Origin: Gammaproteobacteria bacterium
GTDB taxonomy: Bacteria; Pseudomonadota; Gammaproteobacteria; JAUZRS01
Length of the DNA: 64,000 nucleotides
Assembly (NCBI GenBank): GCA_030949385.1
Contig: JAUZSP010000006.1
Location: 64,121 to 128,120 of the forward strand
Direction: 5' to 3'
In this document: in pieces, positions 4,508-34,886 of the stretch
How the letters are laid out: every line of letters starts with the position of its first letter
How positions within the stretch are numbered: the stretch's first letter is position 1
Made by a program: the position numbers and the translations under genes
Notes under the pieces: model-generated
Told to the model about the DNA's origin: nothing
Databases searched by the model: none
What the model saw: the letters and a program-made list of their open reading frames with translations, nothing else

Positions 4508-4510
4508 ATT

Positions 4511-10000: not shown

Positions 10001-10022
10001 TGATTATAACACTCTGTGGAGG

Positions 10023-18911: not shown

Positions 18912-19471
18912 GCTTCTCGAACGTAAGCGTATTGCCAAGGCGTTTGGTTGAGCGCGTGTAGTGCATCCAGTAACGCTTGGCTAGGGATGGCTTCGTGAGG
19001 GTGAATGTTTAAAACTTCGATGACACTTCTACCGAAGGCAGCCTGCTTTCGCCAGTTCCATTCCCACGGGGCTGAGGTTTTTTCACAGACGCTGCATGAC
19101 CACCGTTGAGTTTGATCTTTGTGCCACTGCTGTAGATCCGTTTGCCATGTTGGATGGGCTTTTCGGCAGTGTGGGCAGCGAGGTGCTGTGCTCATGCTAT
19201 CCACGGCGCTGTAATAGTGATTTTTTTGTTGCGGCAGATGAATCGCGCAGTAGGTTTGATCGGCTTTCGCTTCTTCTGGTTGCAGGGCGATAAACGGAGA
19301 GCAGCCAACAAAGGTCAGTTGTTCCATAAATCGTTCACCTGAGCGGTAGTGATCGTCTCTGTTTGGCAGAGGATCGGCCATGAGTTGCAGCTGTTGCAGT
19401 GTCCCGATTAAGACGTTGTTGGAGGCTTGCCACTCGATGTGGTTGGAAAACAGGATCAGTTTGGCATTCAT
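18908..19471 (-). CDS. Hypothetical protein with two CxxC pairs (zinc-ribbon-like)
   Basis: 187 aa containing CPHC...CSVC. Its start overlaps the stop of the upstream REC-domain gene (ATGA), which suggests translational coupling. Confidence 0.5.
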   Translation of the reverse strand: MNAKLILFSNHIEWQASNNVLIGTLQQLQLMADPLPNRDDHYRSGERFMEQLTFVGCSPFIALQPEEAKADQTYCAIHLPQQKNHYYSAVDSMSTAPRCPHCRKAHPTWQTDLQQWHKDQTQRWSCSVCEKTSAPWEWNWRKQAAFGRSVIEVLNIHPHEAIPSQALLDALHALNQTPWQYAYVREA

Positions 19472-20931: not shown

Positions 20932-21159
20932 TAGAGCAGTATCCTAAAGTAATGTCTGGTTGATCGGGTTGTCCGAATATTCGTTATTATTAGCGAGTTG
21001 AAGCCTATTTTTTGCTAAATTGCCCACGAAAATGACATTTTGTGAACAATCATCTTAACTATTTCCTATTTTTGTTGACGTTGTGGCTCACAATTTGTCC
21101 AGTTTGGCAGCAGATATACGTTTGAATTTTGCGATTTTTCTATAAGGAAACGTAGTTTT

Positions 21160-21840
21160 ATGGGGTTGTTAAAAAAAGAAGCGGTGGTGATGTTGTCCGG
21201 TGGTTTGGATTCGGCCACCACGTTGGCTTACGCCCTAGATGCCGGTTTTGATTGTTACGCCTTGAGCTTTTTTTACGGTCAGAAGCACCGTTCTGAGCTG
21301 GTGGCGGCCAGTCGAATTGCTGAGTCAATGAGGGTCAAAGAGCATCGGGTGGTTGAGATTGGTCTGGGTGCGTTTGGTGGTTCGGCTTTGACCGATGAGA
21401 ACTTGTCCGTACCGACCGAGCCTCAAGAAGGGATTCCAATTACTTATGTGCCTGCTCGTAACACGATTTTTCTCTCTTATGCTTTGGGCTGGGCGGAAGT
21501 GCTGGGCGTCGGAGATATTTTTCTGGGTGTGAATGCGGTGGACTACTCCGGTTACCCTGACTGTCGCCCCGAATATTTGGCCGCCTTTGAGACGATGGCC
21601 AATTTGGCCACCAAACAGGGGGTTGAAGGGCAAGGGTTTAAAATTCACGCGCCGCTGATTGACTTGAGTAAGGCGGCTATTATTGAGTTGGGAGTGTCAT
21701 TGGGGGTGGATTATCGCCAGACGGTCTCTTGTTACATGGCGGATGAATTAGGCCGAGCCTGTGGCCGTTGTGACTCGTGTCGTTTGCGACGCGAAGGTTT
21801 TGCACAGGCTGGGATTGATGATCTTACTCGCTATCGCTGA
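21160..21840 (+). CDS. queC: 7-cyano-7-deazaguanine synthase
   Basis: Begins with the PP-loop SGGLDS motif ([11 protein letters not shown]) and ends with the CxxC..CxxC zinc site typical of QueC. Confidence 0.9.
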
Positions 21841-21957
21841 TTTTAACTTAAGTTTTTTTAAGCTAACTGTTTTCTGATTAATGGTTATAGTGGTCGTTTT
21901 TTCACTATTTACAATAATCAATGGGTTTTGTGAATCCATCGTTATTTAAAGGGGGCA

Positions 21958-23184
21958 GTGATGGAATTTGATCTTTTCAGTCAGATGTTGGTCTGGGCGT
22001 TTGTTTTGGCGGTCATTTTAGGTGTGGTGGCGAATAAAACCAGTTTTTGCACCATGGGTGCGGTATCCGATTGGGTCAATATGGGTGATAAAAGCCGCAT
22101 GCGCTCTTGGTTGTTGGCCATTGCAACCGCCATTATGGCGGTCATGTTGATGGAGTGGCTGGAGCTGGTGGATATGTCCTTGACCACCAGTAATGAAACC
22201 TCTAATCCTCCTTATCGGGTCAGTAACTTTGTTTGGTTGCGTTACCTTGTCGGTGGGTTGATTTTTGGTGTTGGTATGACCTTGGGCAGCGGTTGTGGCA
22301 ATAAAACCTTGCTGCGTTTGGGAGCCGGTAACGGCAAGTCTATTGTGGTGCTGTTGGCGATCAGTGCCGCAGCCTCTTTAATGATGTTCACCAGCATTGA
22401 TTACGATCTGTTTTTGAGCTGGATGACCCCTTTGGCGGTTAACTTTACTGATTACGGCATCCATGATCAGTCTGTGGGTTCCATTGTTGAAGGTGTTGTG
22501 GGGGCTGAGCCGGATTCTCAATTAAATCTAATCGTTGCTGCCCTGATTGGGCTGGGTCTGTTTTGCTGTATTTTTAAATCCGCAGAGTTTCGTGCTAACC
22601 GAGAGTTGATTGTGGCTGGGTTGTTGGTTGGGTTGTTGGTTGCATTGGCGTGGTGGGTGACGGCAGGTGCGTTAGGACAGCAGTTGTTAGAAGAAGCTGA
22701 TTTTATGGATGTGCGTCCTTATGCGTTGGGTGCCCAGTCTTTTACTTTTGTGGCACCAACAGCACACGCCTATCAATACATCGAACAGGGTTTTGATCGC
22801 AGTTATGTGAGCTTTGGTTTGGTGGCGGCTTTGGGCGTCATCTGTGGTTCTTTTGTCTACGCGCTGTTTTCTGGTACCTTCCGTTTTGAGTGGTTTGTGA
22901 ACTGGAAAGATTTTCGTATGCACTTGGTGGGCGGTCTGTTAATGGGCGTTGGTGGAGTGTTGGCCATGGGCTGTACCATTGGTCAGGCGGTCACGGGTGC
23001 ATCGACTCTGGCTTTGGGGTCTTTTGTGGCCTTTGCCGCCATCGTGCTTGGCAGTGCGTTGAGTATGAAGTACCAGTATTACAAAATGTTATACGATGAT
23101 GCGACGGTTTTGGATGCGTTTGTAACCGCTCTGGTAGAGTTGCGTTTATTGCCGAAAAAACTGCGACGTTTGGAGGCTTTATAG
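21958..23184 (+). CDS. YeeE/YedE family sulfur-compound (thiosulfate) transporter
   Basis: 408-aa polytopic membrane protein with two-fold internal repeats carrying the conserved Cys motifs (GSGCG ... GCTIGQ). Confidence 0.7.
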   Translation: MMEFDLFSQMLVWAFVLAVILGVVANKTSFCTMGAVSDWVNMGDKSRMRSWLLAIATAIMAVMLMEWLELVDMSLTTSNETSNPPYRVSNFVWLRYLVGGLIFGVGMTLGSGCGNKTLLRLGAGNGKSIVVLLAISAAASLMMFTSIDYDLFLSWMTPLAVNFTDYGIHDQSVGSIVEGVVGAEPDSQLNLIVAALIGLGLFCCIFKSAEFRANRELIVAGLLVGLLVALAWWVTAGALGQQLLEEADFMDVRPYALGAQSFTFVAPTAHAYQYIEQGFDRSYVSFGLVAALGVICGSFVYALFSGTFRFEWFVNWKDFRMHLVGGLLMGVGGVLAMGCTIGQAVTGASTLALGSFVAFAAIVLGSALSMKYQYYKMLYDDATVLDAFVTALVELRLLPKKLRRLEAL

Positions 23185-23287
23185 GGATTTTAACCCTTGT
23201 TAATAAGGCCTATAAAAAAGGCTTGCGTTAAATTTTTATTAGGGTAATATACGCGGCCTCACCCCAGCGGTGAGGTAGTTTCAAGCA

Positions 23288-23363
23288 GGGCCGTTAGCTC
23301 AGTTGGTAGAGCATCTGACTTTTAATTAGGTGGTCGAAGGTTCGAATCCTTCACGTCCCACCA
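23288..23363 (+). tRNA. tRNA-Lys (anticodon UUU)
   Basis: Cloverleaf by eye: GGGCCGTTAGCTCAGTTGGTAGAGCATCTGACTTTTAATTAGGTGGTCGAAGGTTCGAATCCTTCACGTCCCACCA, very close to E. coli tRNA-Lys. Anticodon loop CTTTTAA. Confidence 0.9.
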
Positions 23364-23370
23364 TATTTTT
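23318..23370 (+). repeat. attL: 53-bp direct repeat, the 3' half of tRNA-Lys plus 7 nt
   Basis: ACTTTTAATTAGGTGGTCGAAGGTTCGAATCCTTCACGTCCCACCATATTTTT; a second copy is at 30921-30973. Confidence 0.85.
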
Positions 23371-23731
23371 CAAAGACTTAGCAAAACTCACCTCTCCACA
23401 AATCTTCCCGTGGGACACTGGTGGGGCACTTCCAAATCAAACACCAGCACAATGACATTCATTTTTGTTGTTATTTTTTCGTGCGTGCGTGTTTATCAAT
23501 TCAATCTTCGGCAATCGCCACCAGCAAAAAAAGAATATTGAACCTAAATTGCCCCCTTTTCGCGGTCAACTGCCCCATGAGTGCCCCATAGACTACTTTT
23601 GTGTTTATAAATTATTGTTTTGTATAGATATTATTTAATAGATCACCTGATTATATATCAGGTGTTGCTGTTTTTTGTGGTTTGTCTTACTCTATTCCCC
23701 ATTGTTCACGGTTGTTTTATGAGGGAAGGAT

Positions 23732-24799
23732 ATGGCCAGCATTGAGAAGCGCACCAGCAAAGAGGGAGTGGTCTCCTATCGGGTCAAAGTGAGGTTGAAA
23801 GGCTACCCAATACAAACGGCCTCTTTTGAACGGCGTACCGATGCCAAAAAGTGGGCGCAGCAAACAGAGGTCGCCATTAGGGAAGGGCGACACTTCAAAA
23901 CCCGAGAGGCCAAACGGCATACTTTTAATGAGCTGGTGAAGCGGTACATAAAAGAGGTGGTGCCACGCAAGCCCAAAGCGGGGGCATACGATCACAGTTA
24001 CCAACTCAGGTGGTGGGCTGATCAAATCGGGGATTGTGTGTTGGCGGACGTTACAGCGGCTTTACTGACAGAGACGCGGGACAAACTGGCCAATATACCC
24101 ACAGTGAATGGGCAGAGGGCAGCCGCTACGGTGAACCGCTATCTTGCCTCTGCAAGCCATGCGTTTACGGTTGCGGTGAAAGAGTGGGGATGGCTGGAAG
24201 ATTCGCCCATGCGGAACGTGAGTAAGTTTAAGGAGCCACGGGGACGGGTGCGCTATTTGAGTGAAGAAGAGCGGCCTAGGTTTCTTGCTGCTTGCCGAGA
24301 GAGCAGTAATCCATACCTGTACCCCGTTGTTGTTCTGGCACTCTCCACCGGAGCGAGAAAGATGGAGATATGTTCCCTTTCTTGGGCGGCCATCGACCTT
24401 AAGCGTGATGCTCCACAGATCGTTTTACATGAAACAAAGAACGGTGAGCGGCGTGTTTTGCCCCTAACAGGCCATGCTTTGGAGCTGGTGCGTGATTTGG
24501 CCAAAGTTCGGCGCATTGATACCCCGTTGCTTTTTCCGAGCTTGAAGAATCCCAGTAAGCCGATGGGCATTAGAGCGCCGTTTCTCAGAGCGTTGGCAAA
24601 GGCTGAAATAGAAGATTTTCACTTCCATGATTTGAGACACAGCGCGGCCAGTTATCTGGCCATGGACGGTGCCAGCATGGCGGAGATAGCGGAGGTTCTA
24701 GGGCATAAAACCCTACAGATGGTGAAACGCTACAGCCACCTTTCAGATGCACACACGGCCAGTGTGGTGGCTTCCATGAATGCCAAGATTTTTGGATAA
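23732..24799 (+). CDS. int: Tyrosine recombinase / phage-type integrase
   Basis: 355 aa. The C-terminal catalytic region has ..HDLRHSAASYLAMDG..LGHKT..MVKRYSH (R...HxxR...Y). The gene sits immediately 3' of the tRNA. Confidence 0.85.
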   Translation: MASIEKRTSKEGVVSYRVKVRLKGYPIQTASFERRTDAKKWAQQTEVAIREGRHFKTREAKRHTFNELVKRYIKEVVPRKPKAGAYDHSYQLRWWADQIGDCVLADVTAALLTETRDKLANIPTVNGQRAAATVNRYLASASHAFTVAVKEWGWLEDSPMRNVSKFKEPRGRVRYLSEEERPRFLAACRESSNPYLYPVVVLALSTGARKMEICSLSWAAIDLKRDAPQIVLHETKNGERRVLPLTGHALELVRDLAKVRRIDTPLLFPSLKNPSKPMGIRAPFLRALAKAEIEDFHFHDLRHSAASYLAMDGASMAEIAEVLGHKTLQMVKRYSHLSDAHTASVVASMNAKIFG

Positions 24800-25051
24800 G
24801 CCTCATTAAGGAAAAAATGCTAATGGCTACGGATAAAAATAAAAATGACCCGTTAGAAAGCCCCATTCTTTGTAGGGGCATGATTCATTACGCGGGGGGA
24901 AAACCCAGAAGCGGCTCAGAATTTATACCTCTTAGCTTCTGAAAAATTAAAGCGTTCTGAATCATTACCATCTAGCTTATCCGAATGGCTTGGGGAGATA
25001 TTAGAGAACTTAGCCTTCTGTGATAGGGAGAATAGGGGAGCAATCCGAAAG

Positions 25052-25384
25052 GTGGTGAAGTTGAATGCTAAAAATGGGGGGCAAAGAAAAAATAGTGAAC
25101 TAGGGTCAAAGATCGCCCGTATACAACATCAACATAAATGCAGTGTTTTAGGTGCTTTAGAGATTGAGGCAGAACAAAATCTCAATGAAGAAGGCAAACA
25201 ATCCGATCATAAAGACCTTCCAGTTGATACTTTACACAAAGCATTTTATAACAAAAATAATACACATCGAGAGGATTGCCGCTTTGTTAAAGCGGTATTA
25301 GAGCAAAAGACCCCATATCATTTCAGAGTGAAAAAAATTCTTTCAATTCTTCAACAAATCGCGATTAAAAAAACAATGGAATAA
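25052..25384 (+). CDS. Hypothetical protein in an AT-rich stretch of the island
   Basis: 110-aa ORF. The local AT-richness departs from the chromosomal composition. Confidence 0.35.
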   Translation: MVKLNAKNGGQRKNSELGSKIARIQHQHKCSVLGALEIEAEQNLNEEGKQSDHKDLPVDTLHKAFYNKNNTHREDCRFVKAVLEQKTPYHFRVKKILSILQQIAIKKTME

Positions 25385-25485
25385 GGGTGTCAGGTTTCTT
25401 CTATTTTTACTAGACAGGCATTTAGCCATACTCCAGCACAACACGGCATAAGCCGCGTTATTTTTAATAATTACTGGAGCTTTAA

Positions 25486-25722
25486 ATGGAACATAGAAGT
25501 TTTTTAACCGTCCCTCAATTCAGCGTTAAACATCCCGCTTTTACCCAATCAAGCCTAAGAGGCTTAATCTTCAACGCCAAAAGTCGGCAGAGCAGCCAAG
25601 GGATGATTGAAGGCAACGGCTTAGCCCCTGCCATTATTCGCATTGGTCGCAAAGTCTTAATTGATGAAGAGAAGTTTTTGGCTTGGGTGGACAACCACCA
25701 GCAAAACGGCCAAGCGGCATAA
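25486..25722 (+). CDS. alpA: AlpA-family phage transcriptional regulator / excisionase-like HTH protein
   Basis: 78 aa. TVPQFSVKH...IRIGRKVLIDEEKFLAWV matches the AlpA/MerR-type HTH of prophage CP4-57-like regulators. Confidence 0.65.
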   Translation: MEHRSFLTVPQFSVKHPAFTQSSLRGLIFNAKSRQSSQGMIEGNGLAPAIIRIGRKVLIDEEKFLAWVDNHQQNGQAA

Positions 25723-25730
25723 GGGGGAAG

Positions 25731-26105
25731 ATGATGAATAAAAAACTGCCAAAGGATGGGGTTGCAACTCCACCCAGTGACCGGCACAACATCACAGTAC
25801 AGCGACTGAACCCCGAGTTTATCCCGCCACGGCTTGATGATAAAGAGGTTATTTCTGGTGCAGTCCATACCACGCTGGCCGGTTTCCCAAACATTGACCC
25901 CAAGGTAGTGCGGTACTACTCCAAAAAGCTGGCCTCTGTTGGCTGGAAGTTGGCGGCTTACGTTTGGAGTGAAGGTACAAAAGGCATTATTAGGATGCCG
26001 GTGGGGACTGAACCCTCTCCCTCTTTGCTGGTGGAGAAATACGGGCTGTTTCGAGGGCGGTTAGAGGCAGAGCTTTTAGGCTCCCAGAATGGAGGTCATA
26101 TCTAA
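25731..26105 (+). CDS. Hypothetical protein on the island
   Basis: ATG at 25731 preceded by AAGGGGGAAG, giving a 125-aa ORF. No recognisable motif. Confidence 0.4.
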   Translation: MMNKKLPKDGVATPPSDRHNITVQRLNPEFIPPRLDDKEVISGAVHTTLAGFPNIDPKVVRYYSKKLASVGWKLAAYVWSEGTKGIIRMPVGTEPSPSLLVEKYGLFRGRLEAELLGSQNGGHI

Positions 26106-26130
26106 TGGTTAATAGATTACTTACCTTGCC

Positions 26131-26375
26131 TTGTCACACTGCCACGCTTAAAAAACCATTTACAAAGCACCTCATATTTATAGGGATTTTAAATAGTATT
26201 AATGTGAGGTGTGATGATTTTCAGAGTGATTTTTTTCACTTTGCTGTTAAAAGGTGGCGTGACAGGCGTGACGGCGTGACAGATCAAAAAAATATATTAA
26301 TTATCAATAGGATAGGTGTGTTTTTGAGTGTCACGCTACGGGTGTGCCACGCCGTGACAGGCGTGACAGATTGCG
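26131..26375. repeat. Left copy of an imperfect inverted repeat of about 245 bp that contains GCGTGACRG iterons and an AT-rich spacer (origin-like)
   Basis: About 90% identical to the reverse complement of 29861-30098. Contains 3 tandem 9-mers GCGTGACAG/GCGTGACGG/CGTGACAGA at 26257-26283, an AT-rich 40 bp, then an inverted TGTCACGC and two more GCGTGACAG copies. Confidence 0.8.
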
Positions 26376-26762
26376 CGATAAGGGGCTTGCTGTTCTGTGT
26401 TAGAGAAGTTTCTGCCGCTTATAAAGGGGCGCGAGCTGGAGCCGTTGCAGAAGTTTTTGCCGCTTATAAAAAGGGAAAGGGGTTGACCACCCGCACTGTG
26501 AAGCCCTATCCTTGCCGTTCCTCTGCACAATCAGAGGACGGGGTTCGCAACCCGAGCAATACCAAGCCGCACCAGCACCGGCCTCAAACCGTGCTTTTTT
26601 TGTGTAAGTCCGTTTGTTCTTTATGGCGGATTGTGTGGGGCAGCTTTCGGGCTGGCCGGTTCCCTTGGTTTCCGGTAGTGCGAACCCCATACAATCTGCC
26701 ACCCTTAAACCGCTTCGTAACGGTCGGTGGCAGCTTCCTAAATTACCAAGGAGCTTGTCATT

Positions 26763-27005
26763 ATGCTTAACTTATCCCCTCCCAATCCGTCTACCCGTTG
26801 CAGTCACGCGCCTGTTGAGGTGGTGGTTTATACGGTCTGTGTTACGTCTCTTTCTCGTTCTGGTGGGCGTACCACGCGCCCTGTATCGCGTTATTTCTCT
26901 TCCCGTATTGGCGCGTTTACCTCCTTTGATCCAGACCCCGACTACTTGGCGTGGTATCACGATCTGCTTTTGCTGGATTCCGCTTTGGCAGGGGGTGGCC
27001 TGTGA
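26763..27005 (+). CDS. Small ORF that may be translationally coupled to the primase gene
   Basis: 80-aa ORF whose TGA (27003-27005) overlaps a candidate GTG start of the primase frame (ctGTGAag). No motif recognised. Confidence 0.25.
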   Translation: MLNLSPPNPSTRCSHAPVEVVVYTVCVTSLSRSGGRTTRPVSRYFSSRIGAFTSFDPDPDYLAWYHDLLLLDSALAGGGL

Positions 27006-29173
27006 AGCAGAAAATAGACTTTCAAGCCATCAACCAATCGGCCATAAACAATGCGGTAAGTGTGCTTAACCATTATCTTCCTGATGGGACAAGCAGTGGC
27101 GGTGAGTACACGGCGTTAAACCCAACACGGGAAGACAGTAAAAAGGGCAGCTTTTCGGTTAACACCCAAAGTGGCCGGTGGTCTGACTTTGCCACAGAGG
27201 ATAAAGGTGGGGATCTGATAAGCCTGATAGCCTACCTAAACGGCACTAAACAGGGTGCAGCGGCCAAAGAGTTGTCCCAGTTTTTGGGGCTGTCAGAGGT
27301 CAACCACAGCAGCCAAAAGAAAACCGCCACGGTGGCGCAATCGAGCAAGCACCCCCCCGCTGAATGGGCACCTTGTTTGCCGGTTCCCAACGATGCACCC
27401 GCACCTCATGAGGAACATTCCCGTTTTGGTAAACCGTCAGGCCGTTGGGTCTATCGGGATGAACAAGGGGCGGTGCTGTTTTATATGTACCGTTTTGAGC
27501 AAGAGGGCAAAAAGAAGAGCTACGCGCCGTTGAGTTACGGCAATTATGGCGCGGGGTGTTTGCACTGGAAGTGGAAGGGTATTCCAGCACCCCGCCCCCT
27601 CTATCATCTTGACCAACTGGCAGCCAAGCCAAAGGCCAAGGTGGTGATCTGTGAGGGTGAAAAAGCAGCGGATGCCGCTCAATACCTTTTGCCGGATTGG
27701 GTCGCCGTTACCCCACCCAATGGGGCGCAATCACCGGATAAGGCCAATTGGTCGCCCTTAAAAGGTCGGGATGTGATGATTTGGCCAGACAATGACAAAG
27801 CCGGTGCCGCGTTTGCGGATCGGGTCAAGGCGCTGGTGGAGGGTGTCGGGGTTAAGTCGGTCGCTTTGTTGGTGGTGCCGTTTGCCTTTGGTCTCGATGG
27901 TGACGGCCTTAAGCCCGTGGCCGGTGATGGCTTTGCAGAGAAGTGGGACGCGGCGGACGCAGAGGCCGAAGGCTGGCAGCCAATGCACCTTAAACAGTTG
28001 ATCCAAAAAGCGGAGTGTGTGCGGGTGACTGCCCTCTCTGTCACGGTGAAGAGGGAAGGCAGAAAGAGACCGATTAAGGGTTCAACCTTTGGCCATAACT
28101 TCAAAGTGAAAGAGAGCGGTGTGTGGTTTCATCCACCATCAGAAGACCAACAGGACGCACCTAAGCCCATATTGATTTGTGACCGGCTGATGGTGAGTGC
28201 CAGAACACGGGACACGCACGGCGAAAGCCACGGGCGGCTGTTGGAATTTGTAGATTCAGACGGTGTACCGCACCAGTGGGCGATGCCTATGGAGATGCTG
28301 GCCGGTGATGGCTTGGAGGTCAGAAAGCGGTTGATGTCCCAAGGTTTAAGTGTGGCGCAGAGCCGCAAATCACGGGATCTGTTGGGCATGTACATACAGA
28401 CGCAACAACCGAAAGACAAGGCGCTCTGTGTGGATCGTATCGGCTGGCATGGTGGGGCATTTGTTTTGCCTGACAAGGTGCTGGGACAGAAAGAGGGTGA
28501 TCGGGTGTTGTTGCAGGCTCCAAGAAGAGAAGACCCTGTGTTCTCTCAAAAAGGCAGCCTTGCAGAGTGGCGGCAGCAGATAGCGGCGTTGTGTCTGGGC
28601 AATTCACGTTTGCTGTTTGCGGTCAGTTTGGGTTTTGCTGCCAGTGTGTTGAAGCCGTTAATGGAAGAGTCGGGCGGTTTTAATATTCGTGGTGCCAGTT
28701 CTACCGGAAAAAGTACGGCGCTACGGGTGGCGTGCAGTGTGTGGGGTGGAGCCAATCGGATGCAGCGGTGGAGAGCCACCGGTAACGGCCTTGAAGGGGT
28801 GGCCTCGATGCACAACGATACCCTTTTGTGCTTGGATGAATTGGGGCAGGTTGAACCACGGGAAGCGGGTGAAATTGCCTACATGCTGGCCAACGGTGCC
28901 GGTAAGCAGCGCAGCCGAAGGGATGGCAGCAGTGCAGCGGTAAAAGAGTGGCGGCTGTTGTTTCTTTCAGCCGGTGAGGTGGGTTTAGCGGAACAGATGC
29001 GCCAAGGCGGTAAGCGGGTCATGGCCGGTCAAGCGGTGCGAATGGTGGATATTCCAGCGGATGCGGGGCGTGGCTTGGGGTTATTTGAAGACGTTGAACG
29101 GCCACCGTTCTGGCGGCCATCTTTCAAAGGCGTTATCGGCTGCCACCCAAAAGGCTTACGGTACAGCAGGTGA
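26951..29173 (+). CDS. Phage/plasmid primase-helicase: N-terminal zinc-binding-like region, Toprim domain, P-loop (DUF927 / SF3-like) NTPase
   Basis: 740 aa. Toprim motifs (VVICEGEKAAD ... DNDKAG). Walker A GASSTGKST and Walker B LLCLDELG. The protein appears to continue in another frame at 29061-29789, implying a frameshift. Confidence 0.75.
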   Translation: MVSRSAFAGFRFGRGWPVKQKIDFQAINQSAINNAVSVLNHYLPDGTSSGGEYTALNPTREDSKKGSFSVNTQSGRWSDFATEDKGGDLISLIAYLNGTKQGAAAKELSQFLGLSEVNHSSQKKTATVAQSSKHPPAEWAPCLPVPNDAPAPHEEHSRFGKPSGRWVYRDEQGAVLFYMYRFEQEGKKKSYAPLSYGNYGAGCLHWKWKGIPAPRPLYHLDQLAAKPKAKVVICEGEKAADAAQYLLPDWVAVTPPNGAQSPDKANWSPLKGRDVMIWPDNDKAGAAFADRVKALVEGVGVKSVALLVVPFAFGLDGDGLKPVAGDGFAEKWDAADAEAEGWQPMHLKQLIQKAECVRVTALSVTVKREGRKRPIKGSTFGHNFKVKESGVWFHPPSEDQQDAPKPILICDRLMVSARTRDTHGESHGRLLEFVDSDGVPHQWAMPMEMLAGDGLEVRKRLMSQGLSVAQSRKSRDLLGMYIQTQQPKDKALCVDRIGWHGGAFVLPDKVLGQKEGDRVLLQAPRREDPVFSQKGSLAEWRQQIAALCLGNSRLLFAVSLGFAASVLKPLMEESGGFNIRGASSTGKSTALRVACSVWGGANRMQRWRATGNGLEGVASMHNDTLLCLDELGQVEPREAGEIAYMLANGAGKQRSRRDGSSAAVKEWRLLFLSAGEVGLAEQMRQGGKRVMAGQAVRMVDIPADAGRGLGLFEDVERPPFWRPSFKGVIGCHPKGLRYSR

Positions 29174-29789
29174 GGCGTTTATTAATGGCTTGTTGCCCTT
29201 GGGTGATCTGGTGCCCGTTGTTGAGGGGTTACAGGCGGACTTCCTTAAGGGTCTGCTTCCAGATGAAGCCGATGGTCAGGTTCACCGTGTGGCGGGTCGT
29301 TTTGCGTTGGTGGCGGCGGCGGGTGAGCTGGCCACTCGATTTAAGATCACCGGCTGGCCAACAGGTGAGGCCAGTAAGGGAGTAAAGAGCTGCTTTAACG
29401 ATTGGTTAAAAGAGCGCGGCGGTCACGGAGCACAGGAAGAGAGAGAGGCTTTAAAACAGGTTCGCCACTTTATCGAGGTTCACGGGGAGTCGCGGTTCTC
29501 TCCTTGGGTGCAAGATGAGCGATACCGCAGCACCAGCAACCGAGCGGGTTTCCGTAAGCACTTGGAGGGTGGCGGGGTGGAGTATTACATTTTGAGAGAA
29601 AGCTTTAAGCGTGACGTGTGTGACGGCTTGGATTGGCGTTTTGTTGTCGAAGTCTTGAAAAAACACGAATGGCTTGTTCTGGATTCAAAAGGGGGAGCGA
29701 CACGCCCCGAACGCTTGCCAGAAGGAGGCCGTCAGCGGTGTTACCGTTTAAAAATTCCTGAGCTGGTGGAGATGCGCGCAGTTTCATAG
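29061..29789 (+). pseudogene. Frameshifted C-terminal continuation of the primase-helicase (DUF927 C-terminal region)
   Basis: The frame is open from 29061 and overlaps the end of the 740-aa ORF. The sequence ..AGRFALVAAAGELATRFKITGWPTGEA.. resembles the conserved C-terminal part of DUF927 primase-helicases. The frame switch lies near 29100-29125. Confidence 0.55.
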
Positions 29790-29860
29790 GGTTATGTTGG
29801 ATTGGTTCGACGGGACTTAAAAGCGGCTATTTGGCCGTTTTTTTGTGCCCATGACAAAAT

Positions 29861-30098
29861 CTGTCACGCCTGTCACGCCGTGACACACCCGTAGCGTGAC
29901 AGCCAAAATAGCATATAACATATTGATATTAAATAAGTTATTTGGATCTGTCACGCCGTCACGCCTGTCACGACACCTTTTAGCAGCAAAGTGAAAAAAC
30001 CAATCTGAAAATCCTCACACCTCACATAAATACTATTTAAAATCCCTGTAAATATGAGATGCTTTGAAAATGGTTTTTTATGTGTGGCAGTGTGACAA
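29861..30098. repeat. Right, inverted copy of the roughly 245-bp iteron-containing repeat
   Basis: Reverse complement aligns with 26131-26375 at about 90% identity. TGTCACGCC iterons at 29861-29902 and 29948-29972 flank an AT-rich spacer. Confidence 0.8.
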
Positions 30099-30202
30099 AT
30101 AAACTGCTTTAAGGTACTAGGTAGGGAATTTGGTTTGCGGGTAATTCGAACCCCGCTTAGACGTTATTTACCACCTTATTCAAAATAAACGGGTTCGGGG
30201 CA

Positions 30203-30451
30203 TTAGCCTACCTTGCGGATTTCTTCACGAATAACGCGGCGTAGAACAGCCTCTAATGGTTCTTTGCCCTCTACGCTTTGGATGTGTTGTTGTAGGGCTG
30301 CATTAATCAGTGATTGATAGTTACCACCACCGGCCACTTGATCCCGAAACCATTGCACCACGTCACTGTCAAGACGGATGGTGATTCGTTCCTTATTGCT
30401 TTGGATCACAGCGCCCCGTTGGGCGTTATTGAAGTCGTAATGTTCTCTCAT
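30203..30451 (-). CDS. brnA: BrnA antitoxin (RHH/DUF4415) of a type II toxin-antitoxin pair
   Basis: 82 aa. ..ERITIRLDSDVVQWF..GGNYQSLINAAL.. matches the BrnA family. It starts 4 bp after the brnT stop. Confidence 0.7.
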   Translation of the reverse strand: MREHYDFNNAQRGAVIQSNKERITIRLDSDVVQWFRDQVAGGGNYQSLINAALQQHIQSVEGKEPLEAVLRRVIREEIRKVG

Positions 30452-30454
30452 GGC

Positions 30455-30727
30455 TTAGCCCTCGTACTGTTTGCGTTCTTGCCTATTGGCCTTTCTGGCA
30501 GAGATGATGCGGATAACATCCCCTATTTTGTGCAGGTTTACCACCAGCAAAACACGCCCTTGAAAATCCATGCCAAGCGTTAAGAGGCGCGCCTCTTGGT
30601 GGTTGTGATCTGGGTCGGTTTGGGTCAGTGCCATATCATCGTAAAAGACTCCCACCGCATCGGCAAAATCCACACCGTGCTTATTTAGGTTGGTGTGGCG
30701 TTTGTTTTCATCCCATTCAAAGTTCAT
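30455..30727 (-). CDS. brnT: BrnT ribonuclease toxin (DUF497)
   Basis: 90 aa. MNFEWDENKRHTNLNKHGVDFADAVGVFYDD matches the canonical BrnT N-terminus. Confidence 0.75.
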   Translation of the reverse strand: MNFEWDENKRHTNLNKHGVDFADAVGVFYDDMALTQTDPDHNHQEARLLTLGMDFQGRVLLVVNLHKIGDVIRIISARKANRQERKQYEG

Positions 30728-30920
30728 GGGTTGAGTGTATGCCGGTTGTGCATACAGTCAAGTATCCTTTAGATGGGGTGGTGTTACTGCCCTGTGGGGC
30801 ACTCATGGGACACTAGACCAGCAAAAACAGGGGTAAACGTGAACAAGTGGAAACAATGGGTTGCCATTAACTTATTGATTTAATTCTTTTTTTATTGTTC
30901 TTGGTTGTTCTGGATTATTC

Positions 30921-30973
30921 GTTGTTCGAAACTTTTAATTAGGTGGTCGAAGGTTCGAATCCTTCACGGCCCA
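30921..30973 (+). repeat. attR: second copy of the 53-bp tRNA-Lys 3'-half repeat
   Basis: ACTTTTAATTAGGTGGTCGAAGGTTCGAATCCTTCACGGCCCACCATATTTTT; 52/53 identical to 23318-23370. Confidence 0.85.
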
Positions 30974-31071
30974 CCATATTTTTAAACGCTGTTCTTAGCG
31001 TTGATTCTTTCATTTTATTTTGCCTTAATAGGCTACCTTTCCGGTACGATCATTGACTCACTTTTTTATCT

Positions 31072-31782: not shown

Positions 31783-33046
31783 GAAAATAGAGTTCTCAAA
31801 AAACGACAATCAAAGAAGGCCGCCCGTGGAATCCATAGTAGAATCGGTTTTACTCTCCATGTCCAGTGTTAAAAAACCACAACGTCTTTTTCTCTCAGCT
31901 CTGTTTTCCGCATTGATGGTTTTTCAAGGGAAAGCCACTTTTCGTAATTTGAGTCGTTACAGTTCGTTGCATGAAAAACGTCTGTCGCGTTGGTTTCGAC
32001 GTTCATTTGATTTTGCACAATTCAACAGACGCCTACTTCAAAAAGGGCTGCCACAAAAGCACGATCAAATTGCCGCCATTGATGCCAGCTTTATGAAAAA
32101 AAGTGGTCAGAAAACAGCAGGGTTGGGTTGGTTTTACAACGGCGCTTTGGGGCAAGCCATGGTGGGGTTGGAGTTGTCGTTGGTTTGCCGAATTGATCTT
32201 CAAAGTCGAACCGCTTACGCGCTGGAGGCTCGCCAAACGTTGGACTCGGAACAGAAAGAGGGTGAGAGCCGAGTGGACTGCTACGCGAAACAGGTTTGTG
32301 ACCTTGCCTGTGATCTTCAAGCGCAAGGCATTCGCTACCTTACCGCAGACGCCTACTACAGCAAGGTGAAGTTTGTCGATGCGGTCTGTTCAGATGACTT
32401 ACACCTGATTGGAAAGCTGCGTTCAGATGCCAACCTAAGCTGGTATTTTGAGGGCGAGTACGGTGGCAAAGGACGTCCTAAAACGTACGATGGTAAAGTC
32501 AATTTCCAAACGGAGCTGTCCCGTTTTGATGCGTGTGGCGTAATGGATAAGGGGGTATCGATTTACAGCGCCGTGGTTCACTCGTGTTGTTTCAAACGGA
32601 AAATCCGTGTGGTGCTGCTGCGATGGGAGCAGAAGACAAAAGTCCGTTCGGCTCTGCTGTTTTCTACGGATTCGGAGTTGGCTCCAGAAAAGATTGTCGA
32701 ATATTACACCGCTCGTTTTCAGATTGAATTTTTGTTTCGTGAAGCTAAGCAACATACGGGTTTAATGGATTGCCAAGCGCGTTGCCCAGAGGCCATTCAA
32801 ACTCATATTAATGCCTCGTTCACCGCACTGAATTTATTGAAGCTGGAAGACCGTAAGGACAAGAGCAACCCTGAGCCTTCGGTGATTTCGATTGCCTCGT
32901 GGCGACGTAAGAAATTCAATCAATATTTGATGAAAATACTTTTTGACAAGTTAGGTTTGGAGAGATCTTGTCAAAAAGTCGAGGCGGTTTACCATGAGCT
33001 GAGTGAGTATGGGGCTATTCAGGTTTAAAACTGTCCGAAGTATTGA
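31727..33046 (+). mobile_element. IS701-like insertion sequence (IS4 superfamily), 1320 bp
   Basis: 21-bp perfect terminal inverted repeats TCAATACTTCGGACAGTTTTA (31727-31747 and 33026-33046). A 4-bp direct duplication CCGT at 31723-31726 and 33047-33050. A single transposase ORF. Confidence 0.75.
31826..33028 (+). CDS. DDE transposase (IS701/IS4-like)
   Basis: 400 aa with a DDE_Tnp_1-like organisation (..AIDASFMKKSG.. ... DAYY ... EFLFREAKQHTG). It lies between the inverted repeats. Confidence 0.65.
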   Translation: MESIVESVLLSMSSVKKPQRLFLSALFSALMVFQGKATFRNLSRYSSLHEKRLSRWFRRSFDFAQFNRRLLQKGLPQKHDQIAAIDASFMKKSGQKTAGLGWFYNGALGQAMVGLELSLVCRIDLQSRTAYALEARQTLDSEQKEGESRVDCYAKQVCDLACDLQAQGIRYLTADAYYSKVKFVDAVCSDDLHLIGKLRSDANLSWYFEGEYGGKGRPKTYDGKVNFQTELSRFDACGVMDKGVSIYSAVVHSCCFKRKIRVVLLRWEQKTKVRSALLFSTDSELAPEKIVEYYTARFQIEFLFREAKQHTGLMDCQARCPEAIQTHINASFTALNLLKLEDRKDKSNPEPSVISIASWRRKKFNQYLMKILFDKLGLERSCQKVEAVYHELSEYGAIQV

Positions 33047-33298
33047 CCGTTGATAATCTGATAAATGTGACAAACCATCTGGTACGACTTATTTTTATGC
33101 TTGGATGAAGGGCGCTCTCTGGGCTAGTCTTTATGCTTTAGAAGTTTTAAGGCCGTCGTAAGGTAGAGTGGTTTACTCTACTTAATTCAGTTTTTTGCAA
33201 CTTCTATCCAGTGTGGCGTTAGGATAAACCTCTGTAGGTTTGTGCTGTAATAGATTGAATCATCTATATAAATAGAAATTCAGTTTTGGATAGATTGC

Positions 33299-34078
33299 AT
33301 GGAGTGCGTTTTAATGATTGATGAGGCTTTGGCGTTTCGTCTGGGTCAGGAAAGCCCCGGTTTTTACGGCAAAATTCCCGTTAGGGGTGATTTTGTGTCG
33401 CGCCGCTTGGCGCAGCATTTTGTTGAACCTTGGGATCATTGGTTGCAAGAGTCTTTGCTCTCCAGTCAGGAGCAGTTGGCGGATGACTGGTTGGATGTCT
33501 ACCTGACCAGCCCTGTGTGGCGTTTTGTGATGACCAAAGGGGTCTGTGGTTCTCTGCCGTGGGCGGGAGTGGTGATGCCGAGTGTGGATCGAATGGGGCG
33601 TTATTTTCCTTTCACCCTTGCGACTCCGTTGGCCGAAGGGGTGAATCCGTTTCGAATGATGCAGTCGGGAGGGGCGTGGTACGCACAAGCAGAAACCTTG
33701 GCGCTTTCCAGCCTCCGCGAAGGCTTTGAACTGGAAGAGTTTGACCAGCAATTGAAACGTTTACGAGTGCCGAAAAGTGCCGCTAAAGAGACGGTACACA
33801 ACGGCATAATGGGGGTTTCGTCCGCTTGGCATATCTCATTAGCGGCACCGTCGAGTTTGGCGGGTGCTTGTTCTGAGTTGGCAAATCAGGCTCTGGAAGA
33901 GCTTTATTTTGGCTACAGCCTCTGGTGGAGCCACGGTTCCGAGCAGGTGGAACCTTCTTTTTTAGTATGTCAGGGATTACCCCCGACAACAGGCTTTGCA
34001 GCCATGTTGGGAGGAGACTGGGAAAATGCAGATTGGCAGAAGAGAAGCGTTACCTCTGCCCACGGTGATGGATTTTGA
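33299..34078 (+). CDS. tagF: TagF (DUF2094) type VI secretion-associated protein
   Basis: 259 aa. GFYGKIPVRGDFVSRRLAQHFVEPWDHWLQESL is close to the P. aeruginosa TagF N-terminus (WYGKLPSLGDFVSRRLP..FV.PWD.WLQ). ..SVDRMGRYFPF.. is also conserved. Confidence 0.7.
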   Translation: MECVLMIDEALAFRLGQESPGFYGKIPVRGDFVSRRLAQHFVEPWDHWLQESLLSSQEQLADDWLDVYLTSPVWRFVMTKGVCGSLPWAGVVMPSVDRMGRYFPFTLATPLAEGVNPFRMMQSGGAWYAQAETLALSSLREGFELEEFDQQLKRLRVPKSAAKETVHNGIMGVSSAWHISLAAPSSLAGACSELANQALEELYFGYSLWWSHGSEQVEPSFLVCQGLPPTTGFAAMLGGDWENADWQKRSVTSAHGDGF

Positions 34079-34859: not shown

Positions 34860-34886
34860 TTAATCGCTGATTGATGAGCAAAAAAA

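Follow-up and report, generated by a model that had tools for sequence, protein, structure and literature searches.

An island in the tRNA-Lys gene of an uncultured marine gammaproteobacterium, with a predicted P4/P1-type antisense-RNA immunity region before its primase-helicase gene, is probably a stripped-down phage satellite

The phage parasite P4 (11.6 kb, from an enterobacterial host) integrates at a tRNA gene via a tyrosine integrase and carries the Rfam trio c4-a1b1, isrK and C4, in this order, upstream of its primase-helicase operon. Its primase-helicase, alpha, combines a Zn-ribbon/Toprim N-terminus, a P-loop helicase and a C-terminal domain, the cI-alpha operon is bracketed by two clusters of 8-9-mer iterons (ori, and crr directly downstream of alpha), and a long ORF from the upstream regulator gene (8168-8812, minus strand) reads through the immunity region. 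For the immI operon of P1 and P7 (c4, icd, ant), Citron and Schuster (1990) reportedly described a C4 RNA whose two loops have a1 and b1 as partners on the upstream side and a2 and b2 on the downstream side. In that account the regulated gene is translationally coupled to a small ORF, a2 overlaps the ribosome-binding site of this ORF, and specificity shifts by paired substitutions in loops and targets. PICMI (phage-inducible chromosomal minimalist islands, Vibrionaceae) and the marine VEIMEs show that islands with int, alpA and primase but without capsid genes can be satellites. In Gram-negative PICIs (EcCICFT073 type) the plan is int/alpA, an immunity-RNA zone (C4/isrK), a primase with ori downstream and a variable late or accessory zone, and searches with the C4 and isrK profiles pick up relatives of CI and seqA both in P4 and in these PICIs (Mageeney et al. 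2023). The authors of SatelliteFinder note that its "Type C" sets (int, AlpA, primase) may be other mobile elements and do not accept them as confident PICIs.

The island studied here lies in the tRNA-Lys gene of an uncultured marine gammaproteobacterium, within a window of 64 kb (the whole stretch of DNA that was analysed); it spans 7.6 kb and is confirmed as a real mobile element (Table 1). As the preliminary description had it, tRNA-Lys(UUU) is followed by a tyrosine integrase. The 3' part of the tRNA gene, from 23318 on, belongs to attL, which begins in the anticodon loop and ends 10 nt beyond the tRNA gene. The direct repeat reported earlier is a real pair, unique in the window, but not one of 53 bp at 30921-30973, a placement mis-registered by 10 nt. 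Across the window its 38-nt core has exactly two occurrences, and 100 shuffles gave none. The tRNA copy at attL has an acceptor-stem mismatch, C4.U69; at this position the attR copy shows G69, as does the related MAG L082. L082 carries at the same tRNA-Lys an integrase 98.6% identical to that of the island. The AT-rich patch noted before was also recovered (GC 0.37 at 25000-25400 vs about 0.45-0.53 in the flanks). No empty tRNA-Lys site was found. A metagenome search, suggested at the outset, yielded the same cassette in a 6.4-kb island at tRNA-Leu(CAA) in another metagenome (JGI 3300023313; hereafter L001), and no close relative was found in IMG/VR.

Table 1. Features of the island, with positions in the 64-kb window
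Feature	Position	Strand	Evidence
tRNA-Lys(UUU), integration target	23288..23363	+	ARAGORN tRNA-Lys(ttt); Rfam tRNA 69.7 bits
attL direct repeat, 56 nt	23318..23373	+	repeat search, 54/56 identical to attR
tyrosine integrase, 355 aa	23732..24799	+	Phage_integrase PF00589 7e-31; phrog_1 integrase 2e-66
orf110, function not assigned, AT-rich stretch	25052..25384	+	L001 island homologue, 40% identity (tblastn)
putative excisionase/AlpA-position HTH protein, 78 aa	25486..25722	+	position between int and replication module
orf124, ORFan	25731..26105	+	self match only among 5.8 billion proteins
orf221, long read-through ORF	26105..26770	+	open frame, conserved in L001
left origin-like arm	26131..26373	+	inverted repeat with 29857-30099, 242 nt, 88%; iteron enrichment
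direct repeat pair, 27 nt each, spaced by 45 nt, close upstream of immunity promoter	26399..26470	+	repeat search, 89% identity
sigma-70-like promoter TTGACC-18-TATCCT	26483..26512	+	promoter scan; position equivalent to P4 P_LE
leader with seqA/a1b1-like C4 RNA targets (26506-26558), then intrinsic terminator hairpin and T-run (to 26601)	26506..26601	+	
C4/CI-type antisense immunity RNA	26619..26706	+	Rfam RF01695, 84.5 bits (gathering score 45)
downstream C4 targets b2 and a2	26714..26755	+	complementarity, compensatory changes in window-L001 alignment
orf80, leader ORF in P1 icd position	26763..27005	+	64% identity to L001 87-aa ORF over aligned columns
primase-helicase	27002..29789	+	DUF927 5e-92; interrupted by frameshift
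right origin-like arm, inverted copy of left	29857..30099	-	repeat and iteron analysis
brnA, type II toxin-antitoxin pair	30203..30451	-	PF14384 1.6e-12; PHROG antitoxin match
brnT, type II toxin-antitoxin pair	30455..30727	-	PF04365 5.5e-26; PHROG toxin match
attR, partial copy of tRNA-Lys 3' part	30931..30986	+	repeat search, 54/56 identical

The "non-coding" 590 bp ahead of the primase form, judging from their sequence, a P4/P1-type antisense-RNA immunity region, in which a promoter is accompanied by a seqA/a1b1-like target, a terminator and a C4/CI RNA of full length. The C4 match (E 4e-17) covers model positions 1-87 of 87 and outscores P4's own CI (84.5 bits in the window and 85.2 bits in L001 vs 74.9 bits). 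Both leader matches are full length, at 40.7 bits for c4-a1b1 and 40.9 bits for isrK, and both stay below the Rfam gathering scores (46.7 and 50, respectively); the isrK match begins at 26519, 7 nt downstream of the promoter. The promoter of L001 is near-identical (TTGACC...TATTCT, one substitution in the -10 hexamer), and the second copy of the 27-nt repeat, partly conserved in L001, may with its partner represent regulator-binding sites. The loops of C4 are complementary to two upstream and two downstream sites: b2 is UUCGUA at 26714-26719, and a2, UACCAAGGAGCU at 26744-26755, covers the AAGGAG ribosome-binding site of orf80. Loop a' reads CCCUUGGU in the window and CCCUUUGU in L001 (ribosome-binding-site targets ACCAAGG and AACAAAGG), and loop b' reads UGCGAAC and CUGCUAA (targets GUUCGCA and UUAGCAG). 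Loops and targets covary between the two elements (n=2 elements only), with duplex energies of -12.7 kcal/mol for cognate and -6.9 for non-cognate pairs.

orf80 gave no match in the HMM profile searches; every indel relative to the 87-aa ORF of L001 is a multiple of 3, and its stop overlaps the primase start (GTGA in the window, ATGA in L001). The region is also crossed by orf221, which starts in an overlap with the orf124 stop (TAATG), continues across the left origin arm and the promoter, then the RNA target, the terminator and the C4 gene, and ends 5 nt after the orf80 ATG. Its frame contains 0 stops vs 16 and 16 in the other two frames (in L001 the same frame has 0 vs 14 and 9), the proportion of shuffles as open is about 5e-5, and the product is 44% identical in amino acids to a 227-aa ORF of L001. 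orf221 may function as an eta-like read-through ORF. With respect to C4, its frame is not that of the read-through ORF of P4.

Iteron-rich regions around the primase had been described, and 8 of the window's 11 GGCGTGAC sites do lie there (2 expected); the supposed two regions are, however, a single 243-bp origin-like unit, 88% identical and duplicated in inverted orientation, which flanks the immunity-replication cassette on both sides. The left arm consists of three direct GGCGTGAC(A) iterons, an AT-rich spacer, and one inverted and two direct iterons; the right arm begins 68 nt after the primase stop, in a position equivalent to P4 crr. The GGCGTGACA arms are candidate binding sites of the primase-helicase.

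On the left side, the intact, full-length integrase has more than 7900 relatives, in a clade of highly diverse cargo that includes RT-containing and primase-polymerase islands. The designation of the 78-aa HTH protein as an AlpA-like regulator did not hold up: it stays below every HMM threshold (best profile HTH_17, E 0.022), does not match the Phage_AlpA profile and shows no similarity to the AlpA of L001. Its AF2 model (pLDDT 49) has a helix / beta-hairpin / helix secondary structure, and we retain a putative excisionase/AlpA-like assignment because it lies between int and the replication module. Neither orf110 (only 3 matches among 1.84 billion representative proteins) nor orf124 has an HMM match in Pfam, PHROGs, NCBIfam or PADLOC. 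At the right end, the BrnT/BrnA pair is as first described, with a promoter-like site ahead of it (30761-30734, minus strand; promoter scan). The earlier view that capsid, packaging and conjugation genes are absent is upheld: no structural, packaging, conjugation or defence protein of the island was matched in Pfam, PHROGs, NCBIfam or PADLOC. The window contains no prophage, and neither a helper phage nor a cos/pac site or packaging function was identified. A relaxase or an oriT-like or mobilisation protein was likewise not found.

L001 has the inverted origin arms, promoter, a1b1, terminator, C4, leader ORF and DUF927 primase (73% identity) of the window, as well as the read-through ORF and the orf110 homologue. 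It differs in its integrase (405 aa, with an Arm-DNA-bind_3 domain), its tRNA target, a bona fide Phage_AlpA in place of an HTH protein not demonstrably one, the lack of orf124 and brnTA, its C4 specificity, and GGCGTTAC iterons in both arms instead of GGCGTGAC; the changes are compensatory in RNA loops, targets and iterons. Its primase (917 aa) is intact, whereas that of the window is frameshifted.

The primase-helicase shows a weak Zn-ribbon and Toprim, a DUF927 helicase and a C-terminal domain. Of the Toprim plus P-loop enzyme proposed earlier, the DUF927 match and a PHROG "DNA primase/helicase" match over the N-terminal 350 aa stand, but the Pfam Toprim match is weak (E 0.005) and the gene is broken. 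The helicase half is related to a staphylococcal pathogenicity-island protein and to SCCmec Cch; PDB relatives of the enzyme are 8tch ("Pathogenicity island protein", 2e-25) and 5dgk (5e-19). In the DNA alignment a single extra base near 29088-29090 splits the gene: frame 1 stops at 29173 and the C-terminal 230 aa go on in the +1 frame to 29789, so that a 740-aa ORF aligns to residues 1-686 of P0002 and a 242-aa ORF to residues 677-917. The homologues (910-970 aa) are all single ORFs, and NCBI annotates only the 723-aa N-terminal part here. This copy may therefore be unable to replicate, the C-terminal third of the enzyme being detached, unless the insertion is an assembly error. The frameshift, the presence of a toxin-antitoxin pair and the C4.U69 mismatch in the attL tRNA copy could also indicate a decaying, now immobile remnant, in which replication was killed and BrnT/BrnA addiction alone keeps the island. 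We regard this as possible but doubtful, considering the near-identity of the att repeats, the full-length integrase shared with L082, the high score of the C4 RNA, the preservation of orf221, orf80 and both arms, and the chance that a one-base indel in a MAG is an assembly or polishing error; for the ancestral element, it is compatible with the explanation that we prefer.

That explanation, to which we incline, is a site-specific integrative element in tRNA-Lys(UUU) whose core is a portable replication-immunity cassette working like the P4 left operon. With P4 the island has in common the tRNA site and tyrosine integrase, the Rfam trio, in unchanged order, ahead of the primase-helicase operon, the domain order of that enzyme, the two flanking iteron clusters and the read-through ORF. 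Because this control logic is shared with a phage parasite, the island is probably a stripped-down phage satellite. The satellite or integrative element (P4-like or PICI-like) proposed in the preliminary description thus stands in so far as the element is small, integrated at a tRNA gene, equipped with a replication module and a P4-type CI/C4 RNA of its own and free of structural genes, but not as regards membership of the P4-like family. That membership was rejected: psu, sid, delta and epsilon are absent, and the DUF927 helicase (SaPI Rep/Cch type) has no BLASTP similarity to alpha, whose helicase is D5_N/DUF5906/Pox_D5. Furthermore, no cos site is recognisable, and P4 has ori and a crr of 2 x 120-bp direct repeats where the island has a near-identical inverted iteron duplication. 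Unlike in P4, the C4 RNA would mask the ribosome-binding site of a primase-coupled leader ORF, which is the c4-icd-ant layout of P1; the two-loop pairing and the paired loop and target substitutions are likewise as in P1/P7, although there the controlled gene is an antirepressor in a 94-kb plasmid prophage.

With PICMI and VEIMEs the island shares the size (about 6-8 kb), a core of integrase, small HTH regulator and primase, the absence of capsid-remodelling or packaging genes, a marine host and an accessory cargo slot, and it may resemble a minimal satellite of this type in its working. PICMI, however, integrate next to fis, are defined in Vibrionaceae, have a demonstrable AlpA and often iolg overlapping int; the present element instead uses tRNA-Lys, has neither a demonstrable AlpA nor a gene overlapping int, and includes an RNA immunity module. 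It follows the plan of Gram-negative PICIs, with unidirectional genes, but is without a Bro-N protein, a capsid or other late gene, or a redirecting-packaging gene. As a confident PICI it was rejected (the five-component model of SatelliteFinder would give only "Type C"). Two other elements, phiAH14b, a packaged Pseudomonas satellite, and the 10-kb vB_Pae_U10, carry relatives of the DUF927 primase and share the gene order int, regulator, primase.

In the integrated state, a constitutive promoter would make the short leader and C4 RNA. C4 would pair with the leader and the ribosome-binding site, so that transcription ends or orf80 translation is blocked, and with it, by coupling, translation of the primase; replication would therefore be off. 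Upon induction, probably by a helper phage, transcription would start upstream in the HTH-orf124 operon, and translation of orf221 on this transcript, past the terminator and through the C4 region, would override immunity, as eta translation does in P4. The integrase and the HTH protein would excise the circle, and the primase-helicase would bind the two iteron arms, in the way that alpha binds ori and crr in P4, and amplify the element. Lacking capsid and packaging genes, the element would need the full-size capsids of a helper phage in order to spread, as in the concatemer packaging of PICMI/VEIME, and BrnT/BrnA might stabilise the island or abort infection.

It is less probable that the island is no phage satellite but an integrative element able to replicate once excised, spreading by conjugative mobilisation (as an IME with an unrecognised oriT), vesicles or generalised transduction, with the RNA switch as copy-number control only. 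Such an element would agree with the lack of recognised helper-sensing, capsid-redirection or packaging genes (Pfam, PHROG, NCBIfam), the service of DUF927/Cch-type helicases in SCCmec, which is not a satellite, the varied cargo of the integrase clade and the caution of the SatelliteFinder authors. However, mobilisation functions were not found either, the C4/CI and seqA arrangement has so far been described in phages (P1, P7), P4 and Gram-negative PICIs, and the order int, regulator, immunity RNA, primase, accessory zone fits the PICI plan. Finally, a left-end remnant of a larger prophage or PICI with deleted late genes, suggested by the capsid gene or late zone downstream of the primase in Gram-negative PICIs and vB_Pae_U10 (here brnTA only), is very unlikely, because attR is a clean tRNA-derived repeat 200 bp beyond brnT, so that the deletion would have had to be internal and precise, and because the independent and even smaller L001, also free of late genes, ends right after its right arm with its own tRNA-Leu-derived repeat.

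The "non-coding" stretch of about 590 bp before the primase gene is an RNA immunity region. Rfam places a C4 antisense RNA in it, preceded by full-length, sub-threshold matches to the c4-a1b1 target family and to isrK, the latter ending in a hairpin and a T-run, and by a promoter with hexamers 18 nt apart (coordinates and scores of all features are collected in the first table). The P4 immunity region, put through Rfam in the same way, gave a1b1 (44.1 bits), isrK (60.8 bits) and C4 (74.9 bits), likewise in this order and ahead of epsilon-alpha. According to Mageeney et al. 2023 (PMC10111431), relatives of the P4 CI RNA and its seqA target are picked up by the C4 and isrK profiles, which match several Gram-negative PICIs. 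Two 27-nt direct repeats (GTTRSAGAAGTTTYTGCCGCTTATAAA), 45 nt apart, immediately precede the -35 of the immunity promoter and may be an operator or activator site; the L001 island described below keeps only the promoter-proximal copy, partly.

Features of the island and its right flank (window coordinates)
Feature	Coordinates	Strand	Evidence or remark
tRNA-Lys(ttt)	23288-23363		ARAGORN
attL repeat copy	23318-23373		repeat search
Integrase	23732-24799		PF00589 7e-31
orf221	26105-26770		
Left origin-like arm	26131-26373		
27-nt direct repeats	26399-26425, 26444-26470		
Immunity promoter	26483-26512		TTGACC-18-TATCCT
c4-a1b1 target	26506-26558		40.7 bits, full length, sub-threshold
isrK match	26519-26601		40.9 bits, full length, sub-threshold
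C4 antisense RNA	26619-26706		RF01695, clan CL00128; 84.5 bits (gathering 45), E 4e-17, model 1-87/87
Primase-helicase start (GTG)	27002		
Right origin-like arm	29857-30099		
BrnA	30203-30451	minus	PF14384 1.6e-12, 48 bits (cut-off 26.1)
BrnT	30455-30727	minus	PF04365 5.5e-26, 91 bits (cut-off 34.5)
attR repeat copy	30931-30986		repeat search
Variable-looking region	31826-41481		directly right of attR and msrA
DDE transposase	31826-33028		right of attR/msrA
Orphan T6SS-associated TagF_N and PP2C genes	33299-34859		right of attR/msrA
hsdM	35235-37208		type I restriction-modification system, complete
hsdS	37205-38392		same system
hsdR	38389-41481		same system

The closest relative of the primase, P0002, sits on a 42-kb JGI metagenome contig (L001), in an island that adjoins a tRNA-Leu(CAA) gene and has an imperfect 22-nt copy of the tRNA end about 6.4 kb away. 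Its gene order is integrase (405 aa, Arm-DNA-bind_3), a 168-aa ORF, Phage_AlpA, a 227-aa ORF, an 87-aa ORF and the DUF927 primase of 917 aa; Rfam again finds C4 (85.2 bits) with a1b1 and isrK upstream, and the cassette is enclosed by an inverted repeat of 111-126 nt. Three ORFs, orf110, orf221 and orf80, and the primase are common to both islands, and the integrase, the HTH protein (78 aa, at the AlpA position), orf124 and brnTA are not. In both sequences loop a' of the C4 RNA is complementary to the downstream target a2, the ribosome-binding site of orf80, and to the upstream target a1, and loop b' to b1 and b2, with compensatory differences between the window and L001 (n = 2 sequences; second table). 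Simple duplex energies for a' against the ribosome-binding site were -12.7 kcal/mol cognate vs -6.9 non-cognate in the window and -9.9 vs -6.2 in L001, and those for b' against b1 were -19.8 vs -12.3.

RNA and promoter elements compared between the window and the L001 island
Element	Window	L001
-35 / -10 hexamers	TTGACC / TATCCT	TTGACC / TATTCT
C4 loop a'	CCCUUGGU	CCCUUUGU
Target a2 (orf80 ribosome-binding site)	ACCAAGG	AACAAAGG
Upstream target a1	ACCAAG	AACAGAG
C4 loop b'	UGCGAAC	CUGCUAA
Target b1	GUUCGCA	UUAGCAG
Target b2	UUCGUA	UUAGCAG

The indels between orf80 and the 87-aa ORF of L001 have lengths divisible by 3 (33 and 54 nt), and the stop of the small ORF overlaps the primase start in both islands (GTGA in the window, ATGA in L001). 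In the P1 c4-icd-ant system, translation of the regulated gene is coupled to that of a small ORF, whose ribosome-binding site is covered by an antisense RNA. The island has the same layout, but here the regulated gene is a primase-helicase, which is also what CI controls in P4, as C4 would in the island. A C4-specific 25-mer had no matches in IMG/VR, and an orf80 profile gave a single spurious 22-aa match within a 1244-aa ORF there, with no C4 nearby.

The two origin-like arms are 88% identical as reverse complements and represent one unit in inverted duplication, the right arm beginning 68 nt past the primase stop. In each window arm, three GGCGTGAC(A) iterons in direct orientation are separated by about 45 bp of AT-rich spacer from a group of one inverted and two direct iterons. 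Because the L001 arms have the same layout with GGCGTTAC in every copy of both arms, the iterons have changed in step, both on the two sides of the cassette and between the elements (window GGCGTGACA vs L001 GGCGTTACA). The annotated P4 record is arranged similarly: ori (9086-9809) and crr (4291-4590, directly downstream of alpha), both with 8-mer "type 1" repeats, enclose the cI-to-alpha operon. That the 243-bp inverted repeats are transposon ends was rejected, since no transposase lies between them; the initiator-type iterons round an AT-rich core, changing in step in both L001 arms, also count against it.

The start of orf221 (TAATG) overlaps the stop of orf124 and its end lies 5 nt past the ATG of orf80, so that the frame crosses the left arm, the promoter, a1b1, the terminator and C4. 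It contains no stop codons vs 16 and 16 in the other two frames, and its L001 counterpart, which starts at the AlpA stop, none vs 14 and 9; shuffles as open as orf221 occur at about 5e-5, and the inverted right arm, with a 1-nt indel difference, is not open. orf221 is non-randomly open, yet its amino-acid sequence is probably not what selection acts on. P4 has an analogous ORF (8168-8812, minus strand) that overlaps the end of the vis/alpA homologue and crosses seqA and CI. There, termination is prevented when eta is translated, in coupling with the alpA homologue upstream, and transcripts from the late promoter can read through (Mageeney et al. 2023, PMC10111431). Homology of orf221 to P4 Eta was rejected, because its frame relative to C4 differs from that in P4, and we treat the two as analogues only. 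The annotated 221-aa and 227-aa (L001 9065-9748) "hypothetical proteins" share their DNA with an origin arm, a promoter, a terminator and a C4 RNA gene.

The primase-helicase matches DUF927 (5e-92) and, weakly, Toprim in Pfam, is a DNA primase/helicase in PHROGs and is weakly related to the SCCmec Cch helicase in NCBIfam. A profile of 14 homologues led to PDB 8tch ("Pathogenicity island protein", 2e-25) and 5dgk ("Active helicase", 5e-19), and at about 1e-3 to small Toprim proteins. Compared with P4 alpha, the BLASTP match of P0002 was no better than E 0.18, and the Pfam architectures differ (DUF927 vs D5_N/DUF5906/Pox_D5), the alpha type being defined by Zn_Ribbon_Prim, Toprim_3, D5_N, DUF5906 and Pox_D5. 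The packaged Pseudomonas satellite phiAH14b and the 10-kb vB_Pae_U10 also have DUF927-type helicases and share the gene order int, regulator, primase, late zone. The identical NCBI protein ("MAG: Gammaproteobacteria bacterium") has 723 aa and every other homologue 910-970 aa (an exact look-up of the NCBI primase, P0001, returned no record). A 740-aa ORF aligns with residues 1-686 of P0002 at 73% identity and an overlapping 242-aa ORF in the +1 frame with residues 677-917 at 72%; in the DNA alignment to L001 the gene has one extra base in GAAGAC at about 29088-29090. The true start is the GTG, which pairs with Met1 of P0002 and yields the 723-aa product; the annotated 723-aa "DUF927 protein" is a truncated product. 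The insertion is either a genuine mutation or a MAG error, and given the frameshift this copy of the island may be dead.

Among ten tested IMG/VR relatives of the primase (from L002-L024, 34-49% identity) none had a C4 at the Rfam gathering score, and inverted repeats around the primase were absent at 21 more distant IMG/VR primase loci; for these reasons the cassette is specific to the lineage of the window and L001. One distant DUF927 relative in IMG/VR, L007, carries the Rfam int-alpA RNA RF02996 (1216-1285, 62.9 bits) and no C4 module, a case of another non-coding RNA in an island of this type.

As for the remaining genes, only orf110, orf124, orf80 and orf221 lack a family. The first three had no match in Pfam, PHROGs, NCBIfam or PADLOC; orf124 matched only itself among 5.8 billion proteins, and orf110 had 3 matches among 1.84 billion representative proteins, so both are effectively ORFans. 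The 78-aa protein had been described as an AlpA-like regulator, which could not be demonstrated: its best match is HTH_17 at E 0.022, its single-sequence AF2 model is poor (pLDDT 49), and it is assigned to AlpA by position only. The predicted BrnT/BrnA type II toxin-antitoxin system was confirmed in Pfam as adjacent BrnT_toxin and BrnA_antitoxin genes in one operon with a 3-nt gap, and brnTA is all that lies between the primase and attR. Apart from a resemblance of the Toprim domain, PADLOC found no defence system in the island. Capsid, terminase, portal, relaxase and coupling proteins gave no signal in the island in Pfam, PHROG or NCBIfam, and the reported absence of structural or late genes likewise stands, with no structural match in any of these HMM libraries.

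The boundaries agree with site-specific integration into the tRNA gene. The direct repeat is 56 nt long (54/56 identical) and extends from the anticodon loop to 10 nt beyond the tRNA end, and its 38-nt core has exactly two copies in the 64-kb window and none in 100 shuffles. The preliminary description had put the distal copy at 30921-30973; the repeat itself is real but was misplaced by about 10 nt. A tyrosine integrase does adjoin the tRNA att site (tRNA call, direct repeat, PF00589), and the AT-rich patch was recovered as well (GC 0.37 at 25000-25400 vs about 0.45-0.53 in the flanks). These flanks are chromosomal: the left one contains queC and a YeeE/YedE sulphur transporter, the right one msrA; the integration site is the tRNA-Lys between yeeE/yedE and msrA. 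By coordinates the attP junction would join 30930 to 23374 across a single repeat copy, and by sequence attB would join tRNA-Lys directly to CGCTGTTCTTAGCG and msrA. The functional tRNA copy at attL has T69 (window 23356), which gives a C4.U69 mismatch in the acceptor stem, vs G69 in the partial copy at attR (window 30969) and in the tRNA of a related MAG contig (L082, JAUZRS010000165.1); either the element brought a slightly defective 3' half or the mutation occurred afterwards.

With these data the island can be compared to known systems. It resembles P4-like satellites, as had been suggested, in its tRNA att site with a tyrosine integrase and in its CI RNA/seqA immunity in P4 order; immunity of this kind, placed upstream of the primase operon, is a hallmark of P4 but not a SatelliteFinder marker. 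The P4-like model of SatelliteFinder has seven core components (int, psu, delta, sid, alpA, epsilon and alpha), of which the psu-delta-sid operon for capsid size and late-gene control and the helper-derepression gene epsilon are absent (no island ORF matched Psu, Sid, Delta or epsilon in Pfam, PHROG or NCBIfam), while the primase is non-homologous; the island is not a member of the family so defined. The PICI-like alternative holds as far as int and primase are concerned (both by Pfam; the protein at the alpA position has the HTH_17 and pLDDT values noted for it), and fails in that no gene for capsid morphogenesis or packaging redirection is present, so that under the PICI model of five core components the island is at most "Type C" (int, regulator, primase), which the authors of the model regard as ambiguous. 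No prophage was present in the window and no helper phage was identified. PICMIs have a core of int, alpA and prim, are about 6.1 kb long and were shown to be packaged as concatemers in helper capsids (PMC10803314), and the same packaging has been inferred for marine VEIMEs (PMC9618062). The island fits the minimal PICMI core (~6 kb, without capsid remodelling genes) in size and gene content, its AlpA not being demonstrable, but PICMIs integrate next to fis in Vibrionaceae and the island at tRNA-Lys in an uncultured Gammaproteobacterium; by site or host it is not a PICMI. An integrative mobilisable element, the last suggestion, found no support, as no relaxase or Mob family matched in Pfam or NCBIfam, although a cryptic oriT is possible.

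By analogy, the island would work like the immunity and replication core of P4 set in a PICMI-sized island. C4/isrK matches in Gram-negative PICIs and minimal satellites without capsid genes are already known; less usual are an origin duplicated in inverted orientation on both sides of the cassette, C4 coupled directly to leader ORF and primase, and an ORF kept open over origin, promoter, terminator and RNA gene. Around what can be read directly (att sites, integrase, C4 RNA, complementarities, coupled ORFs, duplicated iteron origins, brnTA) the following cycle is proposed, with the island as a hypothetical satellite. In the integrated state a constitutive promoter would produce leader and C4, and C4 pairing together with the leader terminator would hold orf80 and the primase off. 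Upon induction, transcription from upstream, translated through orf221, would override C4 immunity, the integrase and the HTH protein would excise the circle, and the primase-helicase would bind both arms so that the circle replicates; transfer would need the capsids and packaging machinery of a helper phage.

A broader reading, which we offer tentatively and consider rather unlikely to hold, is that the arm, promoter, seqA-like target, terminator, C4, leader ORF, DUF927 primase and second arm form a self-contained, exchangeable replication-plus-immunity cassette that moves between islands with unrelated integrases and tRNA targets, its RNA and iteron specificities co-diversifying into incompatibility or immunity groups; that orf221 is an eta-like anti-immunity ORF translated across origin, promoter, terminator and RNA gene; and that the 6.4-7.6-kb carriers are the smallest satellites with P4 logic, in uncultured marine chemolithotroph-type Gammaproteobacteria, spreading without a capsid-redirecting gene. 

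The finding itself shows that the P4 control logic, an antisense CI/C4 RNA gating a primase-helicase operon between two initiator-binding regions, does not depend on the P4 alpha protein, on Enterobacterales or on capsid-size genes: it recurs in a 3.9-kb cassette with a non-homologous, SaPI Rep/Cch-type helicase, carried by 6.4-7.6-kb islands of uncultured marine bacteria. If they are satellites, the islands would stand beside PICMI and VEIME in showing how small the gene set of a satellite can be. They also provide a compact system for testing the specificity of RNA-based immunity, in which only a few compensating bases separate the window from L001, and the same applies to iteron and initiator specificity.

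Relatives at the tRNA-Lys site were sought in one scan of genome contigs with the YeeE/YedE neighbour, which gave three loci (L082, L083 and L084), and in one metagenome scan with MsrA, which gave only relatives of at most 69% identity from other organisms. None of the three loci or the MsrA matches provided an empty site, because the collections had no genome or metagenome contig that was close enough. L082 comes from the Arctic Mid-Ocean Ridge, and over window 15144-24795 its DNA is 93% identical. Its locus at 8148-10187 shares the tRNA-Lys and has an integrase that is 98.6% identical; it diverges immediately past the integrase stop and the contig ends 530 bp later. Its site is thus occupied too, with at least partly different cargo, and given the unrelated sequence after it, the same integrase travels with different cargo. 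The contig of L083 ends before the tRNA, and L084, from a Granulosicoccaceae MAG that is the nearest named relative at this locus (the host being an uncultured Gammaproteobacterium), is too distant, with a HipA-like gene after the tRNA. In L084 (11380-13355; YeeE 64% identical) the gene after the syntenic tRNA-Lys is not msrA but encodes a 461-aa HTH + HipA_C kinase-toxin-like protein; insertions may recur at the tRNA-Lys locus, making it a hotspot.

The integrase clade is very large (>7900 proteins at E <=1e-40), and the small cargo next to its members varies; a primase-polymerase island and an RT-containing one are among the examples. Two loci have integrases 67-68% identical to that of the window: L166 (5757-11059), with a reverse transcriptase (RVT_1) and a 903-aa protein that may be a defence system, and L167 (10001-15731), with a 646-aa NrS1-1-like primase-polymerase/AAA_25 replication protein. 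The motif CCAGCAMAA has 11 copies in the window vs about 2.9 expected, 7 of them in the island (23444, 23521, 25433, 25698, 26968(-), 30544 and 30818) and three of these less than 200 bp from the att sites; the copies are candidate arm-type sites for the binding of integrase or excisionase. A second motif, GGGGCACT, occurs near both island ends (23423, 23580(-) and 30796). Beyond the variable-looking region to the right of msrA, housekeeping genes follow again (suhB, trmJ-like, iscR, iscS, hscB, hscA and rlmN).
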